Sequence record: OQ938542.1
Strand: one strand, 5' to 3'
Source of the DNA: Escherichia phage vB_EcoP_PE007
DNA: 64,000 nt
Shown: positions 3,202 to 59,949 of the stretch, in pieces
How the letters are laid out: each line of letters begins with the position of its first letter
Numbering within the stretch: position 1 is the stretch's first letter
Made by a program: the position numbers and the translations under genes
Notes under the pieces: model-generated
Seen by the model: only the letters and a program-made list of their open reading frames with translations
What the model was told of the DNA's origin: nothing
Databases searched by the model: none

Positions 3202-3554
3202 AACTAATAGTGGCTGGTGGAAGAGACTTCGTAAATACCCAAGTAATGATTACAGTATTAATGGATTTAGTGGAGAAGGGTAAGATTGACCCTAATCCAG
3301 AATTAGTATGTGGTATGGCTCGTGGAGCAGATATATTAGCTTTCCGACTATGGAAATCTGCAAATATGCAGATACATGTATTCCCTGCTGAATGGGATAC
3401 CTATGGTAAATCTGCTGGATTCCGAAGGAATAAAGAAATGGGTGAGTTTGCAGATGCTGCTGTATGTTTCTGGGATGGTAAATCCAAAGGAACCAAGCAC
3501 ATGATTGATATCATGAATAGACTTAATAAACCTGTATATGTTGTGAGGTACTAA
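3198..3554 (+). CDS. SLOG-superfamily protein (DUF2493-like)
   Basis: 118 aa; GGRDF...GMARGADILAFRLW...AGFRRN...FWDGKSKGT pattern recalled for DUF2493/DprA-LOG-like Rossmann fold. Confidence 0.5.
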   Translation: MKLIVAGGRDFVNTQVMITVLMDLVEKGKIDPNPELVCGMARGADILAFRLWKSANMQIHVFPAEWDTYGKSAGFRRNKEMGEFADAAVCFWDGKSKGTKHMIDIMNRLNKPVYVVRY

Positions 3555-3809
3555 ATGATTATTACATATCCTACGGGTAAAACTGTGGAATATATGAAGC
3601 ATACAATTCAAGTGCCTCATTGGGTTAAGTATATAGCATTACTACCTCGCCAATATAAGAGTGCTAATACCTCACTAATAGGATTCTCTAAGAAGCCTAA
3701 GCTAACAGAAAACAATATCTGGGTATCCTCTGGAAGACAAGAAGAGATTGGTTTTTGTGATTTGAGTATTGTCGATAATAACATCTATGGGACATTGAGA
3801 AAGGTATGA
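3555..3809 (+). CDS. hypothetical protein
   Basis: 84-aa ORF. Confidence 0.45.
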   Translation: MIITYPTGKTVEYMKHTIQVPHWVKYIALLPRQYKSANTSLIGFSKKPKLTENNIWVSSGRQEEIGFCDLSIVDNNIYGTLRKV

Positions 3810-4120
3810 AAACTATTCTAATAGTACATGATTCTACATTTACTGATGTAGATAAGATGATGCGTAATATTGATTATGTATCTCAGACAAGCCAAGCATT
3901 CAATGAAGAGTTTACTCTGTACTGTAATGCTGAATCTCCGCTGGTTCCTATCCTTAAGGAATCAGGTCTACCATTCTCTACAGAGAACTTCCCGGAAGAA
4001 CCAGACTATGTAATTTCATTTATCTATGACTTACATGATGGCTCTGAAACTAGTGAACTAGCTATGAACCAGTGGCGTAGTAAACGTCCTGTGTTTGCAT
4101 TTCAGGTACTTAAACCATGA
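3806..4120 (+). CDS. hypothetical protein
   Basis: 104-aa ORF, start overlaps previous stop. Confidence 0.5.
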   Translation: MKTILIVHDSTFTDVDKMMRNIDYVSQTSQAFNEEFTLYCNAESPLVPILKESGLPFSTENFPEEPDYVISFIYDLHDGSETSELAMNQWRSKRPVFAFQVLKP

Positions 4121-4500
4121 AGATTATGTCATTAGGTGACGACACCAATGCTTTACTAGGTGTATCTGCACGTCCAATCATCATTGTTAATAAACATCAC
4201 GGTAAATCTGGTGAGTATATTGGGCGTGGCTCACCATTAGGCAATCCATTTGTCATTGGTAAAGACGGTTCGAGAGAACAGGTTATAGCCAAATATCGAG
4301 TATGGCTTAATGAACAAATTATGAGAAAGAATCCAGTTGTACTGGATGAACTTAATCGTCTTGGTAATAAAGCCATTGACGAGAAAGGATTAGCCTTACA
4401 GTGCTTCTGTTATCCGAAACCATGTCATGGCGAGGTTATTAAAGAGAAGCTAGTGAAAGCTATGTATAACTATTTTGTGGAGAATCCCAATGGCATTTAG
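4117..4500 (+). CDS. DUF4326-like protein
   Basis: 127 aa; GSPLGNPF...YRVWL...CFCYPKPCHGEV pattern recalled for DUF4326. Confidence 0.4.
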   Translation: MKIMSLGDDTNALLGVSARPIIIVNKHHGKSGEYIGRGSPLGNPFVIGKDGSREQVIAKYRVWLNEQIMRKNPVVLDELNRLGNKAIDEKGLALQCFCYPKPCHGEVIKEKLVKAMYNYFVENPNGI

Positions 4501-5947: not shown

Positions 5948-6766
5948 ATGTACTCATCAATTGAACATCAGAAGCAACTCGAAAAACTATTCAATAAAAA
6001 TCAGCTCTTGCCTCGCATGAGGAAGGAATTCGAGGACTCCGAAGAAATTGACTTTAAGGCATTCGCTGCCTATTTAGAAATTGATTATAAGCTGCTCATT
6101 GATGCAATGGTGCAGATTGCCTTACATAAACGTGCTGACATCCAGACTATGATTGGCTCTCTCATGAGTCACTCAGATGACGCTCAGTACATCGCTGACT
6201 GTCTGTATAAGATGGCAGAGAATGACTGCTTCAACTATGACCCTACCATCGACAAGTTCGGTGTTATTTATGAGATTAGTGAAGATGTACAGATGGAACT
6301 GGAGGCATTCCAGTATCCTTTGCCTATCGTAAGTGCTCCTAAGCCTGTTAAGTGTAATCGTGATACTGGTTACTACGAAAGCAGGGGTAGCATCATTCTC
6401 AAGAAGAACCATCATGAAATGGATGTCTGTCTTGACCACATCAACCGTATGAATAACCAACGTCTCTGTATTAACTGGGACGTTGCTAACTATGTAAAAG
6501 ACTCTCGTCCTAACATGGATAAACCCAAAGAAGGTGAAACCCGTCAGGACTATGAGAAACGTGTTAAAGCCTTTGAGAAGTACAGCCGTACAGCTAAGGA
6601 AGTAATGGAGTTAGTGACCAAAGAAGGTAATAACTTCTCCTTGGCTCACAAATATGACAAACGTGGGCGTACATATGCCTGTGGCTACCACATCAATTTT
6701 CAGGGAACCAGCTACAACAAAGCTGTACTTGAGTTCGCTGATAAGGAGTTAGTAAATGAAGACTAA
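5948..6766 (+). CDS. RNA polymerase II small subunit-like (N4 gp15-like)
   Basis: 272 aa immediately upstream of a T7-like RNAP catalytic fragment; size and position as in N4. Confidence 0.5.
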   Translation: MYSSIEHQKQLEKLFNKNQLLPRMRKEFEDSEEIDFKAFAAYLEIDYKLLIDAMVQIALHKRADIQTMIGSLMSHSDDAQYIADCLYKMAENDCFNYDPTIDKFGVIYEISEDVQMELEAFQYPLPIVSAPKPVKCNRDTGYYESRGSIILKKNHHEMDVCLDHINRMNNQRLCINWDVANYVKDSRPNMDKPKEGETRQDYEKRVKAFEKYSRTAKEVMELVTKEGNNFSLAHKYDKRGRTYACGYHINFQGTSYNKAVLEFADKELVNED

Positions 6767-6974: not shown

Positions 6975-8192
6975 ATGCAACTGTTAACCGCTCGTGAATA
7001 CCTGAAAGTAGATATTGCTAATAACTATGGCTTAGATAAGAAGACATGGGATGAGCGTATTGCCTGGTTCGATGAGAACGAAGCTAACCTGCTTAATCTG
7101 GTAGATGAGGCAGAGGATTCCGCTCTGTTCTTTGCAGGTATAAACGCATGGAAAGACATGAAAGCAGGTAAGCCTATCGGTTATGCCGTAGCTCTGGATG
7201 CTACATCATCTGGCTTGCAGTTACTGGCCTGCCTGACTGGTGACCGTTCTGCTGCTGAACTGTGTAATGTAGTTAACTACATGGGAGAGAATGGTAAGCC
7301 ATTACGTCGTGATGCTTATACAGTTATCTATCACAAGATGCTGGACATCCTTGGTGAAGCATCACGTATTAAACGTAGTGACACTAAGCAGGCAGTTATG
7401 ACTGCATTCTACGGCTCAGAAGCCAAGCCTAAAGAAGTATTCGGTGAAGGTATTCGTCTCAAGACTTTTGAGAATGTAATGGAAACTGTTGCTAGTGGTC
7501 CTTGGGCATTGAACAAGTTCTTACTGCAATGTGGTAATCCAGATGCCAACCGTTACATATGGATACTTCCTGACAACTTCCATGCTGTCATTAAGGTCAT
7601 GGTTCCAGAAGTACAGACTGTTAACTTCTTAGGCAAACCGTTCGACATTACTCGTATGGTTCAGGGTACTGAAGAGAAGACTCGTATGCTCTCTGCTAAC
7701 ATCACCCACTCTATTGATGGAATGGTGGTACGTGAGATGCTACGTCGTTGTAACTTCGACATGAACCAGGTGGGCTATATTAAGTCCCTTTGCGAGGGAA
7801 CAGGTGATTACATGGTTGGATCTGATGATAACTATGAAATGGTTAATACACTGTGGACTAGTTATGAGAAATCAGGCTTCCTGTCTACTCGTATCTTTGA
7901 CTATCTGGATTCAGAAACCATTGCATTGGTTGATACAGATGTAATCCTGGCTATGCTCAACACTATGCCTAAGAAACCATTCCCTGTAATGACTGTACAT
8001 GACTGCTTCCGTTGCCATCCTAACTACGGTAATGACCTGCGTCGTCAATACAATCAGATCTTGTCTGACATTGCTAAGAGTGACTTACTGGGCTTCATTC
8101 TGTCTCAGGTACTGGGACAAGAGTTCTCTGCTGGTAAGCTGGATGACAGCCTCTGGCAGGACATCCTTGAAACAGACTATGCGTTGAGTTAA
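6975..8192 (+). CDS. RNA polymerase II large subunit-like, T7-like single-subunit RNAP catalytic fragment (N4 gp16-like)
   Basis: 405 aa; DATSSGLQLLA resembles T7 RNAP motif A (DGSCSGIQH) and MTVHDCF resembles motif C (HDSFG). Confidence 0.65.
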   Translation: MQLLTAREYLKVDIANNYGLDKKTWDERIAWFDENEANLLNLVDEAEDSALFFAGINAWKDMKAGKPIGYAVALDATSSGLQLLACLTGDRSAAELCNVVNYMGENGKPLRRDAYTVIYHKMLDILGEASRIKRSDTKQAVMTAFYGSEAKPKEVFGEGIRLKTFENVMETVASGPWALNKFLLQCGNPDANRYIWILPDNFHAVIKVMVPEVQTVNFLGKPFDITRMVQGTEEKTRMLSANITHSIDGMVVREMLRRCNFDMNQVGYIKSLCEGTGDYMVGSDDNYEMVNTLWTSYEKSGFLSTRIFDYLDSETIALVDTDVILAMLNTMPKKPFPVMTVHDCFRCHPNYGNDLRRQYNQILSDIAKSDLLGFILSQVLGQEFSAGKLDDSLWQDILETDYALS

Positions 8193-8199
8193 TAAACTA

Positions 8200-8232
8200 G
8201 CCTCATTCCTTCGGGAGTGAGGCCTATTTTTT
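8200..8232 (+). terminator. intrinsic terminator
   Basis: 10-bp stem gcctcattcc/ggagtgaggc, ttcg loop, ctatttttt. Confidence 0.7.
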
Positions 8233-8249
8233 GCTTGGAGGTAACAACT

Positions 8250-8432
8250 ATGCTAATCCCTTTTGAAGTAATCTTTCAGCTAATACTGATAGTTTTATCT
8301 GTACTGGTTCTGTCTACAATAGTTCATGCCCACAAATCTAAGTTTGCTTATTACTACTATGGAGCATATTCACTAGGCTGCTTTGTAATGGCAGGATGGA
8401 TAGCTTTTGCTATCTACTGTGTAAACAACTAA
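8250..8432 (+). CDS. small hydrophobic membrane protein
   Basis: ATG at 8250 with GGAGG RBS; 60 aa mostly hydrophobic. Confidence 0.45.
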   Translation: MLIPFEVIFQLILIVLSVLVLSTIVHAHKSKFAYYYYGAYSLGCFVMAGWIAFAIYCVNN

Positions 8433-8459
8433 CCCTCCTAACGGAGGGTTTATTTTTTT
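8431..8459 (+). terminator. intrinsic terminator
   Basis: ccctcc-taac-ggaggg plus 9-T run. Confidence 0.7.
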
Positions 8460-8506
8460 ACATGTCATGTATACTAACTCTGCTATTTACTTATGAGGAA
8501 ATTGAT

Positions 8507-9340
8507 ATGCCAACTTTAAAAGTAGGTTTTAACAAAACCACTAATGTTGCAACTGTACTGGATGCCAGTGGTTCTATCCCAGGTGGTTCCGTAGAAGTAG
8601 GAACCTTTGTACACCCAGATGCCACTTACCCTGATAGCTTAGTTATCTTCCATGGTGTTCGTGACCTGCTGTATAAACGTTCTGCTAAAGACCCAAGTAA
8701 AGTAGGCTTCTGGCCTAACAACATCGTGGATATGCAGTCTATCTCTATTGATATGAAAGCTACTCCACGACTGACTATTGCTACCAAACTGCCACGTGTA
8801 GTCTCTGCTATTGAAGGTGAAGATATTAACTGGCACGTTGATGTAGCAGGTGGGAAAGCACCATTTACTTATAAATGGCAATTCAAAGCTGATACTGCTG
8901 GTGCAGCATTCGCTGATATTAGCTCCAGTACTAACCCATCTGCTGCTACTGCAACATTGACCCTTAATGATGTAACAGCTACTTCTGCTGGTACTTACAA
9001 AGTGATTGTTACTGATGCTAATGGAACCACGGTAGAGGATGGGTCACTATTAGCTGTAGGCTATTACGAAGCAAGCTCACTGGTAGCTACTCCTGCTTCA
9101 CTGGCTCTGTCTGTTGCTGCCGATGCTGTTGCTGGTAAGACTGTAACAATTGTTGCTATGCCCGTTGGTTCATCTGCTGGTACTTTGTCTATCAAGACTG
9201 CTCCAGATTCTGCTCGTGCTACGGCTACCATTGCTGGTAACGTACTGACAGTTAAACCAGTGGCTGCTGGTGATACTACTTCTGTAGTAGTTACCAACGG
9301 TATAGTCGATGTAACCATCCCTGTTACTGTTGCAGAATAA
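8507..9340 (+). CDS. Ig-like domain protein, candidate capsid decoration protein (N4 gp17-like position)
   Basis: ATG 8507 with GAGGA RBS; 277 aa; Ig-like sequence features (FTYKWQF...TSAGTYKVIVTD); sits just after RNAPII genes. Confidence 0.5.
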   Translation: MPTLKVGFNKTTNVATVLDASGSIPGGSVEVGTFVHPDATYPDSLVIFHGVRDLLYKRSAKDPSKVGFWPNNIVDMQSISIDMKATPRLTIATKLPRVVSAIEGEDINWHVDVAGGKAPFTYKWQFKADTAGAAFADISSSTNPSAATATLTLNDVTATSAGTYKVIVTDANGTTVEDGSLLAVGYYEASSLVATPASLALSVAADAVAGKTVTIVAMPVGSSAGTLSIKTAPDSARATATIAGNVLTVKPVAAGDTTSVVVTNGIVDVTIPVTVAE

Positions 9341-9362
9341 TAGTACTTCTTTTTGTGGTTAT

Positions 9363-9388
9363 AGCCCTCCTTAGTGAGGGCTTTCTTG
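9363..9388 (+). terminator. stem-loop, probable terminator
   Basis: agccctc/gagggct stem, weak T tract. Confidence 0.45.
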
Positions 9389-9407
9389 TATCTATAGGAG
9401 AGTAAAA

Positions 9408-9716
9408 ATGACACAGAAATTACGTGTATGGCACATTCCCCAAATGCCAATGAAGGCATTTCATGTAGAAACTGATAGTCTTCAGGAAGCTGTTAAGATT
9501 AAGAATGCGTTAGCAGACTATGACCTATTCCAGTATGAGAACAATGTCAAAGGCGATTATGCTAATGCTAACGGTATTGAGATGTGGGATGAGTCCCTCA
9601 CTGACCAAGACCTTATTGATAGGGAATTGGAGGACCGTTGGGTAGATTGGTATATTGAAACTGAAGACGATTTCTTTGATGACCCAGAAGAATATCTGAA
9701 TTATCTAATCAAGTAA
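9408..9716 (+). CDS. acidic hypothetical protein
   Basis: 102 aa, strongly acidic C-terminal half. Confidence 0.5.
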   Translation: MTQKLRVWHIPQMPMKAFHVETDSLQEAVKIKNALADYDLFQYENNVKGDYANANGIEMWDESLTDQDLIDRELEDRWVDWYIETEDDFFDDPEEYLNYLIK

Positions 9717-9769
9717 GTATGATTGCTTTATTTGGGGTTATAAACCCTGAAATGAAACCCTCAAGTTTG

Positions 9770-9798
9770 ACCTCCCTATTGAAGGGAGGTCTTTTTTT
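9770..9798 (+). terminator. intrinsic terminator
   Basis: acctccc/gggaggt stem plus ttttttt. Confidence 0.7.
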
Positions 9799-9823
9799 GA
9801 CTTAAACATCCTGGAGCCAGGAA

Positions 9824-10657: not shown

Positions 10658-10987
10658 ATGAAAACTTTACTTAAAGGTATTGCAGTAGCTGCACTGATAG
10701 CTTTGGCCCCAAGTGCACAGGCAATTGAACCAGAACCAATTCTGGAAGGTGCTCAGGCTTACCTGGATGACACCCGTGATGTGTTCGGGCAAGGGTTCTT
10801 CATGGGCAGCATGGTTGCTTACATTGAGAACACAAATAACTGTGTTCCTGATGGTATTAAGTATTCAAGCATTCTGCCTAAGATTGCCAAAGTAGTTATT
10901 TATGACTCTGCGATCCTTAAGATGAAGAATACATCTCAAATTATTGCGTACTCAGTGCACAAGGCATATCCCTGCACCAAATCTTAA
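10658..10987 (+). CDS. secreted/periplasmic protein with signal peptide
   Basis: 109 aa; N-terminus MKTLLKGIAVAALIALAPSAQA is a classic Sec signal with AxA cleavage site. Confidence 0.5.
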   Translation: MKTLLKGIAVAALIALAPSAQAIEPEPILEGAQAYLDDTRDVFGQGFFMGSMVAYIENTNNCVPDGIKYSSILPKIAKVVIYDSAILKMKNTSQIIAYSVHKAYPCTKS

Positions 10988-54861: not shown

Positions 54862-56064
54862 TTACAGAGGAGCAACAGTCTTAATCAGAGCCAGACGTTC
54901 TGGGCGTTTAACCAGGATACCATAGTACCACTTGATAGAACTGAAGCCAGTTTCACCATACGGGTCGTTACGGTCAGCAGTTTCTTTACCAGGCATCTTA
55001 GTCATGATGGTGAACTTAACAGACTTACCATCAGTCTGGAAGCCAATGGTAGAGAAGGAGTCGTCACCAACTACCAGCATCGGGAATACGTCGTAGTGTT
55101 CCTGACCAGATACCATAGAAGTACGATAACCCGGGTTAGTAGTAACCTGAGCACCAGCACCTGCCCAATGAAGCATCTCAGGAACCTGGATAATACGGAA
55201 CTTATCAATACAACCGATTTCACCATTCATCAGAGTACCAGCATCAGCATAGTGCTGAACTTCGATGAATGCTTTATTACCAAACAGGTCTTTCATCGCT
55301 TTCAGTTCTGGAACCAGTTCAGAACCAACGTACATTACACGAGTACCACCAAGTACTTTGGTATCTGTCAGTTTAGAACCAGTGATGATAGTAGTCTGGG
55401 TCGGAGTACGGTTCTCAGTAAGAATCTGGTCAAGACGCATCAGGTTCTTATAAGAAACTACAGACGGGGTAGAACCTTCACCAGTGATGGTTGCATCAGA
55501 GACAGCAGCACCTGCATACAGTACAGTACCAGCAGCAGCCAGCAAGTCTTTCTGGAGAACAGCTTCAGTCAACTGTACAGCACCGTTCATCAGTTCACGA
55601 GACAGGTGTTCTTTCAGCTGGTCATCGGAATCAAAGTCCAGAGACTCTTGGGTAAATTCGTAGAAGAAGCCGAACTTATGAATGGAACCTTCACGAGCCA
55701 GACGAGTGAAGCCTACACGGTTAACACGACCACCATTCTCTGACAGCAGAGGCAGTTTAGAGGTGATGTTACCAACGTCTTTGGAAGAACCGTACAGGTT
55801 ACCGTTAACGATGGTAGCACCATTAGCATCAATACCCTGGTCGTTAATGTTCTTATCATCGAGCAGAGGAACGTACTCGTACACCTTAACAGTCTTGCCG
55901 TAGTTCTTCGGCATGTTAACGGTGTTAGCCAGAGGCATAAAATACTGGTCTTTACGAGACTGAATAATAGCCTTCTTCAGCCAGTAATAGGTATTCATCT
56001 GGTCGGAACCAGCACCATCAATGCTAGATTTCTGACCGTCAATTGGAGCGTTATAGTTTAACAT
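54862..56064 (-). CDS. major capsid protein (N4 gp56-like)
   Basis: 400 aa between portal/scaffold-like genes and tail genes; followed by strong hairpin; size matches N4 MCP. Confidence 0.6.
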
Positions 56065-57678: not shown

Positions 57679-59949
57679 TTATAAGTTCATACCAAGAGCC
57701 GATGCTGGGTCTTGGCTAGGGTCATAATGTTGGGAACTAAGTGAATAAGTCGGGTCTTGCTGTGCAGCTAAGTCACGTTCCTGTAAAGAGTTCCCGTTAG
57801 TCAAAGCGTTATATCCGACAGCAGCAGATATGTTGGGGGTAGTTTCACCTTCTTTAGTAGGTGTTGTCAACGCCTTAGTTATTTGAAGGTTCTGGTTTCC
57901 TTGAGATTGTGCTTTTTGTTTTTCCATATCACGAGCATGTTTAGTACCAGATTCCTGTTCCAGATAATCCAGGTCTTTAAGGTCACCACTAGAAATAGCT
58001 TCTTTAGCCTTAGCATTATTGAGTGCAATCTTACTTTTCAACTCTTCATTCTCAAGCTGTGCTTTTTGAATTGCCAATTGCTTAAGCTGTTCTTCCATAG
58101 GGTCTGGTTGTGGTCGCCAGGTACGTAATTCATGAGCAAGGTCTGGCATACGCTTAAGTTCTGCAATTTTAGCTACGAGAGATAATGTAATAGTCTGGTC
58201 AACTGTATTACCTAACGTTTGAACCATGAAGCTCAAGTCCTGAGATTTCTGGTTATCAATTTCAGCAGTATTAATATCAACCTCAATATCGAAATTACCT
58301 TTAAGGTCTTCACGGTTAATTTCTACGTACTGTTCATTGGTAATACGTACTACTTCCTTCTCAGATAAGAATACGGCATTCATTGCACAAATCTTAGTAC
58401 CAATGTCTGCCATACCCTTAGCTAATCGACGAAGGATTGCCATCTCACGTTTGGATGCTGCATCGAGTGCACCACGAATACCAGCAGCCACATCTCCATA
58501 AGCTGCACCAGTTACACCTCCAGAGAATGCTTTAACACCAGTTAGTGCTTCTGCTTCCTGGTTCTGCATCTGAGTCATAACTATTGCCGACTGAGGTAAC
58601 TCAGGGAACTTATGTTCCATAATGGCCTGACTAGGGTTGCCCTGCATTGGGTTATACTCATAGTCTTGTCCGTCATCATATCGACGTCGGTTCAGAGTAT
58701 CTAACATCCCTTTAGGATAACCACGTTGCCCGTTTGCACTTCGACCTAACAGGTCAATCATCCCACGCATAGTTGCACCAAGAATTGCTTGGTTATCCCC
58801 CAACAGTTCAGCATCAGCTTCACCAAAGAGTTCACGTTTACGGGGCATGTAAGGAACAACTACCAGAGGTAACTTACCATCTGGGAACGGGTTCTTCTCC
58901 ATACGAATAAGAGTAGAACCAATCCAGGTAGCAACAATTGGTTCCAGTGAACCGTCATCATTAATGTCGTAAAATCCCCAGTATTCATAAGCAATGACTT
59001 TCTTACGAAGTGCATCCTTAAACTGGAAATCACCAGGAGTTTTACTTTCATGGTCTGGGTCTGTCATAGGACTAGAACTTTCCCAGTCAATCTTATCCAG
59101 GTTGTGGTAACGGTCCTTGTTCTTCATGAGGTCTGCTTTGCAAGTCTCAAATGAGATAACTGCATAAAGAGCCTTATCCAAATCACCATTACAGCTTGGG
59201 TCAATAACTACGTTGTTTGGGTTAAGCATTTCAACAGTAGGTCTGTTAACCAGTGCTTTCTCTACTTCAACTTCAGTAACACCTGTCTGGATTGCATAAG
59301 TAGCTTCCCCAGTTTCATTGAAGTAATTAACAGCTTCCTTAATATCTTCTGGCATTGTTTCGTCGTACTCACGGGGATTCTCTGCCTGAAGCTGTAGTGC
59401 CTGCTGAAGAATATCTGCTTGTTCTTGGTTCTCAATTGGATACAACTGAAAGACTGGTGTTTCTGTTTTAATCTTAACAGTCTTACGTTCCCAACCAATA
59501 CGAGCAATACCAGTACCGTCATCTACGACACTATGTACGTAATCATCCACCAGTTTTACTTTATTAAGCTGGGTACGGAATTGGTAGTTAAGAACTAATT
59601 CATTCTGACGTGCAGCTAACTCATCTTCAAAAGTAACGGGAGTTACCTTAAAGAGTTTATTAGATGAGAGGAATGGTTCAGACAATGGTGCATAACGCCA
59701 TTCTGCCTGACGGCGAACCAGTCTAGGTTGGACTTGGGAACGCCCCTTCACCTTTGGAGGTTTAGCCTTACCCTTAACTTCCATCAAGTCATTCCACTCA
59801 CGAATCTGGGCCATGATTGCATCGTGAGCAGGTTTAGCTGATTCCAAATCACCTTTCAGTAATTGGATACTTGGTTCCTTCTTCCAGTCCGTTAACTTCT
59901 CTGATTGAGCCGGGTCTGGTAAAGGCTTAAAAGTGTCTTGGTGTTCCAT
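57679..59949 (-). CDS. portal protein (N4 gp59-like)
   Basis: 756 aa immediately upstream of scaffold-like/capsid genes; AGGA RBS. Confidence 0.55.

Follow-up and report, generated by a model that had tools for sequence, protein, structure and literature searches.

The window, the whole 64,000-nucleotide stretch of DNA analysed here, derives from a Gamaleyavirus, a G7C-like, N4-like coliphage of the Schitoviridae. Its DNA is 92-95% identical to that of phages St11Ph5, ShWW44, ECBP1, and Bp4; across the first 25 kb, identity to the same Gamaleyavirus phages is 92-94.6% over 88-93% of the length, and in the DNA around gene 17 it is 90-95% (St11Ph5, ShWW44, Bp4, ECBP1, PD38, and pSb-1). The layout is the standard N4-like one, in which the plus strand carries the early, middle, and replication genes as far as about 37 kb, and the minus strand carries the virion genes together with the gene for the virion RNA polymerase (Table 1). 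ARAGORN detected a single tRNA-Ile gene (anticodon AAT, 35561-35635, plus strand), close to where the plus-strand gene block ends.

The original prediction placed a gene at positions 8507 to 9340, and this interval coincides exactly with an intact plus-strand open reading frame of 277 codons, referred to here as gene 17. The frame opens with ATG (8507-8509), is preceded by a GAGGA motif that is invariant in an alignment of six phages, and closes with TAA (9338-9340), followed directly by a second stop, TAG (9341-9343). In a program-made list of reading frames, the gene 17 frame begins earlier, at an ATG at 8396 (314 aa). We rejected this longer version and set the true start at 8507 because the motif MP(T/V/E)LKV opens all homologs and the chains solved in the PDB, which begin at the equivalent of that position. 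An antisense frame of 131 aa (9064-9459) was also rejected, as a composition by-product of the Ala/Thr/Val-rich GCT, ACT, and GTT codons.

Together, Ala, Thr, Val, Gly, and Ser make up 55% of the gene 17 protein, a composition that favours beta-strands. The frequency of T at third codon positions is 0.48, compared with 0.33-0.39 in the immediate neighbours and 0.38-0.48 in the virion genes (0.42-0.48 in most of them). In this respect gene 17 is closer to the virion genes than to its neighbours, which weakly supports a virion role.

Table 1. Coordinates of gene 17, its predicted domains and signals, and reference genes in the window and in the compared loci
Feature	Position	Strand	Basis or remarks
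RNAPII gp15-like gene	5948-6766	+	phrog_2166 'N4-like RNA polymerase', E=3e-117
RNAPII gp16-like gene	6975-8192	+	PF00940; phrog_2051, E=2e-174
gp16.1, 60-aa hydrophobic membrane reading frame	8250-8432	+	phrog_12530; between RNAP2 gene and gene 17
Intrinsic-terminator-like hairpin with T run	8431-8459 (hairpin 8431-8450)	+	8-bp stem, loop TAAC; between gp16.1 and gene 17
Shine-Dalgarno GAGGA	8495-8499	+	7 nt 5' of gene 17 ATG
Gene 17, very probable capsid decoration protein, 277 aa + TAA	8507-9340	+	Reading frame, sequence, homology
Domain DI, aa 1-88, predicted N-terminal capsid anchor	8507-8770	+	Conserved; role from PMC11768535
Domain DII, aa 89-181, Ig_3/I-set-like	8771-9049	+	Motif GGKAPFTYKWQF...AGTYKVIVTD
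Domain DIII, aa 190-277, C-terminal	9074-9337	+	Role from PMC11768535
Weaker terminator-like hairpin	9363-9382	+	Just 3' of gene 17; dG -12.0, z -2.4, poor T tail
Virion RNA polymerase gene, 3590 aa	37301-48073	-	Alongside virion genes
Major capsid protein gene	54862-56064	-	phrog_1357, E=1.4e-150
Portal gene	57679-59949	-	Virion module
DI + Big_2 protein, KP8 locus	3501-4016		Compared locus
DI + Big_2 protein, phiAxp-3 locus	3501-4274		Compared locus
DI + Big_2 protein, Zuri locus	3501-4259		Compared locus

Gene order around gene 17

Upstream of gene 17 lie the two RNAPII genes, separated from each other by a 53-aa reading frame. The gene had been described as sitting right after the RNAPII genes, and so it does, with one small frame, gp16.1, intervening; gp16.1 is annotated in G7C and St11Ph5 and carries no annotation in N4 or Moo19. 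In N4, middle transcription is the work of the early products gp15 and gp16 (PMC4496689), and gene 17 therefore lies at the early/middle boundary. Its distance from the virion module, also proposed beforehand, is considerable: the major capsid gene is 45.5 kb away, and both it and the portal gene are encoded on the opposite strand.

The order RNAP1-RNAP2-(sometimes small frames)-gene 17 is kept in all eight relatives checked, namely the Enquatrovirinae members N4, G7C, St11Ph5, Moo19, and KP8, together with phiAxp-3 (Rothmandenesvirinae), Zuri, and Frozen (Erskinevirinae), a set that spans four subfamilies and one unassigned genus. A location next to the RNAP genes and away from the virion genes is the normal arrangement in this phage family. 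The suggestion that the decoration gene follows an N4-type arrangement is borne out by this shared order and by the identity to N4 gp17 given below.

Orthology to N4 gp17 and domain architecture

By position and by sequence, gene 17 is the ortholog of N4 gp17. Residues 1-277 align with residues 1-279 of the N4 '32 kDa protein' (ABK54386; 9E99, 9LBZ, and 9LD7, chain J) at E=2.6e-117 and 71% identity, distributed as 77% in DI, 73% in DII, and 64% in DIII; the N4 protein differs in a DII-DIII linker that is three residues longer (VQEPPEV, compared with YYEA here). Similarly, the protein matches Moo19 gp28, an 'Ig-like domain-containing protein' (9D7Z chain J), over its full length (E=7.3e-93, 61% identity), although DII identity is just 45%. 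We checked the identity of these PDB chains, and their first 102 residues equal the genome translations of N4 gp17 and Moo19 gp28. Among PHROGs, the protein matches family 2973, 'Hoc-like head decoration' (E=6.9e-99, protein 1-277 against profile 1-310). In N4, too, the gene follows the RNAP2 gene and is trailed by the same P22-gp17-like gene and hairpin, and the major capsid proteins of the two phages are near-equal in length and highly similar. The capsid-side binding surface is conserved, since the major capsid protein of the window matches N4 gp56 (9e99_A) at E=6.9e-247.

Homologs with at least 80% coverage were found in 82 phage records. The closest Gamaleyavirus gp17 proteins (St11Ph5 ATS92488, Bp4, ECBP1, and PD38; 92-95% identity) differ by point substitutions only and are encoded in an identical gene order, which extends to gp16.1 and to the flanking stem-loops that the G7C record annotates. 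Identity reaches 94% to the 'capsid decorating protein' of St11Ph5, PD38, and Bp4, a GenBank label shared by the G7C ortholog (AEL79626, 78% identity), and is 50% to the protein of Erwinia phage Frozen. Gene 17 is an allele, at 92-95% identity, of an already described protein that is annotated in dozens of Gamaleyavirus genomes. Capsid-bound structures of the N4 and Moo19 orthologs have been solved, and the main value of gene 17 lies in its correct annotation: it very probably encodes an N4 gp17-type capsid decoration protein.

The original prediction also attributed Ig-like features to the protein. These were recovered in DII, where Ig_3 and I-set matches together span aa 93-175 (including aa 96-169, nt 8792-9013), both short of threshold (Ig_3, PF13927, 27.8 bits against a cut-off of 30; I-set, PF07679, 21.6 against 23.7); the G7C ortholog clears the I-set cut-off (24.9 against 23.7). 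They did not extend to DI and DIII, in which no Ig signature was found by Pfam profiles, PDB profile search, or profile-profile comparison. In the profile search for Big or Ig domains that had been proposed as a check, the protein thus gave this sub-threshold signal in DII and no Pfam match to Big_2 (PF02368) at E<0.1. Marginal matches to PDB sequences comprised phage 'Decoration protein' chains (8zvi and 5lxk) and the Ig domains of titin and myomesin.

Searched against the PDB, the DI profile matched only 9d7z_J and 9e99_J, at residues 1-88, and the DIII profile matched 9e99_J (193-279, E=2.8e-42) and 9d7z_J (187-273) and nothing else significantly; the Ig domain of lambda gpV appeared in these DI/DIII searches against PDB sequences at a non-significant E=0.94. 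With hhalign, DIII aligned to the Big_2 domains of KP8, phiAxp-3, and Zuri at a probability of 1.3%, and the DIII-Big_2, DII-Big_2, and DI-DII comparisons, at 0.2-1.3%, revealed no detectable relationship. The absence of a signal between domains agrees with the remark that the three domains of N4 gp17 are dissimilar in sequence (PMC11768535). A single-sequence AlphaFold2 model of the 277-aa protein was unusable (mean pLDDT 35.2, pTM 0.29). All three segments of the protein align to the solved chains without loss of a domain and, judging from these homologs (9E99, PMC11768535), DI and DIII would also adopt an Ig-like fold.

The domains differ in how widely they are shared. DI is 72-77% identical to its counterparts in N4, G7C, and Moo19 and 38-56% identical to those in KP8, phiAxp-3, Zuri, and Frozen, and distant Schitoviridae homologs match the DI part only. 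KP8 gp26, phiAxp-3 ADP65_00018, and Zuri gp27 ('structural protein with Ig domain') are encoded at the same post-RNAP2 locus and share DI, but carry Big_2 domains (one in KP8, two each in phiAxp-3 and Zuri) instead of the N4/G7C-type Ig_3-like DII and DIII. Their sequences point to domain replacement on a conserved capsid anchor and to a modular gp17 family. One possibility is that the family consists of a conserved DI anchor with swappable outer Ig cassettes, either Ig_3-like or Big_2, which adapt virions to surfaces.

Compared with the Frozen protein, DIII is 61% identical, DI 50%, and DII 39%, and 41 of the 88 DIII columns are invariant across six sequences. That conservation relative to Frozen is strongest in DIII was unexpected for a supposedly accessory, solvent-exposed domain.

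Probable placement on the capsid and alternative roles

In a 2.45 A cryo-EM map, N4 gp17 was modelled on the capsid as a three-domain Ig-like decoration protein, of which three monomers per asymmetric unit surround the quasi-2-fold axes of the T=9 capsid and lie flat on its surface (PMC11768535). DI sits at the quasi-3-fold axes and DII on the P-domain of the major capsid protein; DIII is flexible and solvent-exposed, makes minimal capsid contact, and has been assigned 'an uncertain, non-structural function' (PMC11768535). A figure of about 175 gp17 copies per N4 capsid is given in PMC3715699, which cites Choi et al. 2008 for it. Loss of gp17 is reported to leave N4 infectious yet less stable to EDTA and DNase I (PMC7602432). 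The case for this cement role comes from mutant data that others cite but that are unpublished, and the same review also places gp17 among the Ig-like decorations thought to add little stability (PMC7602432). Mass spectrometry detected the Moo19 ortholog in virions, and residues 1-183 of this protein were modelled on the capsid in the corresponding map (PMC11654681); the KP8 ortholog gp26 was detected in virions by MALDI-TOF (PMC6950046).

By extension from these orthologs, the gene 17 product would be carried on the virions of this phage, with a similar location, binding geometry, and stabilising role. Homology with N4 gp17 predicts a monomeric protein in which short linkers connect three beta-sandwich (Ig-like) domains and which would settle flat on the outer surface once the T=9 head has assembled. 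DI would plug each quasi-3-fold axis, and DII would lie over the P-domain of a single major capsid protein, bridging capsomers across a quasi-2-fold axis; DIII would stay flexible and mostly free in solvent. With three copies per asymmetric unit, a head would carry about 175-180 copies. The protein probably strengthens the capsid against harsh conditions, and the free DIII may serve an accessory role in surface adhesion.

A stronger version of this last idea is that the protein acts mainly as a Hoc-like adhesin, which uses its exposed Ig-like domains to tether virions to mucus, to glycans, or to the host surface and adds little strength to the capsid. The scant capsid contact of N4 DIII and its assigned non-structural function fit such a role, as do the strong conservation of DIII, the exchange of the outer domains for Big_2 in other Schitoviridae that keep DI, and a review that names host adhesion beside stability for gp17 (PMC7602432). 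However, DI and DII of N4 gp17 have buried surface where capsomers meet (PMC11768535), N4 without gp17 reportedly shows a stability phenotype (PMC7602432), and the proposed adhesin has no known ligand and is compatible with a cement role. We consider a mainly adhesive function unlikely, though well above negligible, and favour a decoration protein that reinforces the capsid.

The comparison with T4 Hoc (3SHS), the source of the 'Hoc-like' label, extends to function: Hoc is likewise a dispensable, monomeric, multi-Ig-domain capsid decoration protein. In a PDB sequence search, however, the match to Hoc was not significant (3shs_A, E=0.69 over 38 residues only). Hoc binds hexamer centres and projects outward, whereas N4 gp17 lies flat (PMC11768535, PMC7602432). 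The capsid-binding domain of Hoc is C-terminal according to PMC11768535 (N-terminal according to PMC7602432), whereas the conserved anchor of the gp17 family is N-terminal. 'Hoc-like', as applied to gp17, is a functional analogy and not a family membership.

The plus-strand site among early and middle genes, beside small membrane and exclusion-type reading frames, would also suit a non-virion early/middle protein that happens to have an Ig-like domain, such as a membrane-associated factor or one involved in host takeover. This is very improbable, as three orthologs, those of N4, Moo19, and KP8, have been found experimentally in virions (PMC11768535, PMC11654681, PMC6950046) and the identity to N4 gp17 extends over the full length. 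Finally, the probability that the protein is a fibritin, neck-whisker, or tail protein is close to nil: this reading comes solely from GenBank labels of close homologs ('fibritin (wac) protein', 'neck whiskers protein', 'tail spike protein', 'tail tube protein'), the significant Pfam and PHROG matches include no family of fibritins, tail spikes, or tail tubes, the sole 'tail' label (phrog_3995, E=0.0054, aa 140-177) lacks a qualifying stretch, the composition favours beta-strands, and orthologs are modelled on the capsid surface (9E99 and 9D7Z; PMC11768535, PMC11654681).

Public labels of the close homologs are inconsistent, and besides these four they include multidomain protein and virion RNA polymerase. 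Most of these labels are wrong. Fibritin, neck whiskers, tail spike, tail tube, and virion RNA polymerase are unsupported in Pfam and PHROGs; fibritin, neck whiskers, tail spike, and virion RNA polymerase should not spread further.

Hairpins, possible expression signals, and neighbouring genes

Gene 17 is flanked by two terminator-like hairpins. The upstream one (dG -13.3 kcal/mol, z -4.9) has stems that vary between phages by compensatory changes, so that complementarity is kept, and a stem_loop is annotated at its position in G7C. The downstream one is conserved in St11Ph5, N4, and Moo19. More broadly, four plus-strand hairpins of this kind occur within 1.6 kb (the two flanking gene 17, and others at 8200-8223 and 9769-9791) and divide the region into short segments that hold gp16.1, gene 17, and gene 18. 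On both strands, this 1.6 kb holds six terminator-like sites, compared with 1.2 expected by chance.

A -10-like hexamer, TATACT (8470-8475), lies after the upstream terminator and before the ribosome-binding site of gene 17. It is the same in St11Ph5 and reads CATAAT in N4, G7C, and KP8; Moo19 lacks the spacer of about 27 nt that contains it. A scan found no -35 element for this hexamer, a lack also described for the weak late promoters of N4, which need N4SSB. Scanning positions 8000-9800 for sigma-70 promoters returned none, compared with 3.8 expected by chance, and the same scan of the late region returned 20 compared with 33 expected, which makes it uninformative. From its sequence, TATACT could provide gene 17 with a weak promoter of its own.

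Gene 17 might thus form a self-contained, terminator-insulated cassette within the early/middle region, timed or boosted apart from its neighbours, an idea that we put forward tentatively and hold to be rather doubtful. Were the cassette real, the host polymerase could express a virion protein of about 175 copies late, from the 'wrong' strand and region.

Downstream of gene 17, a 102-aa plus-strand frame (9408-9716) belongs to the P22 gp17-like 'superinfection exclusion' family (PF17420, E=1e-44). This gene is found in N4 (gp18), Moo19, and St11Ph5 and is missing in G7C; it is probably missing in Bp4 and ECBP1 as well, because their DNA match ends just past gene 17. This neighbour of gene 17 appears to be a variable accessory gene. 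Further along, a 109-aa plus-strand frame (10658-10987), a homolog of gp17.3, begins with a signal-peptide-like N-terminus, MKTLLKGIAVAALIALAPSAQA, and possibly encodes a secreted or periplasmic phage protein.
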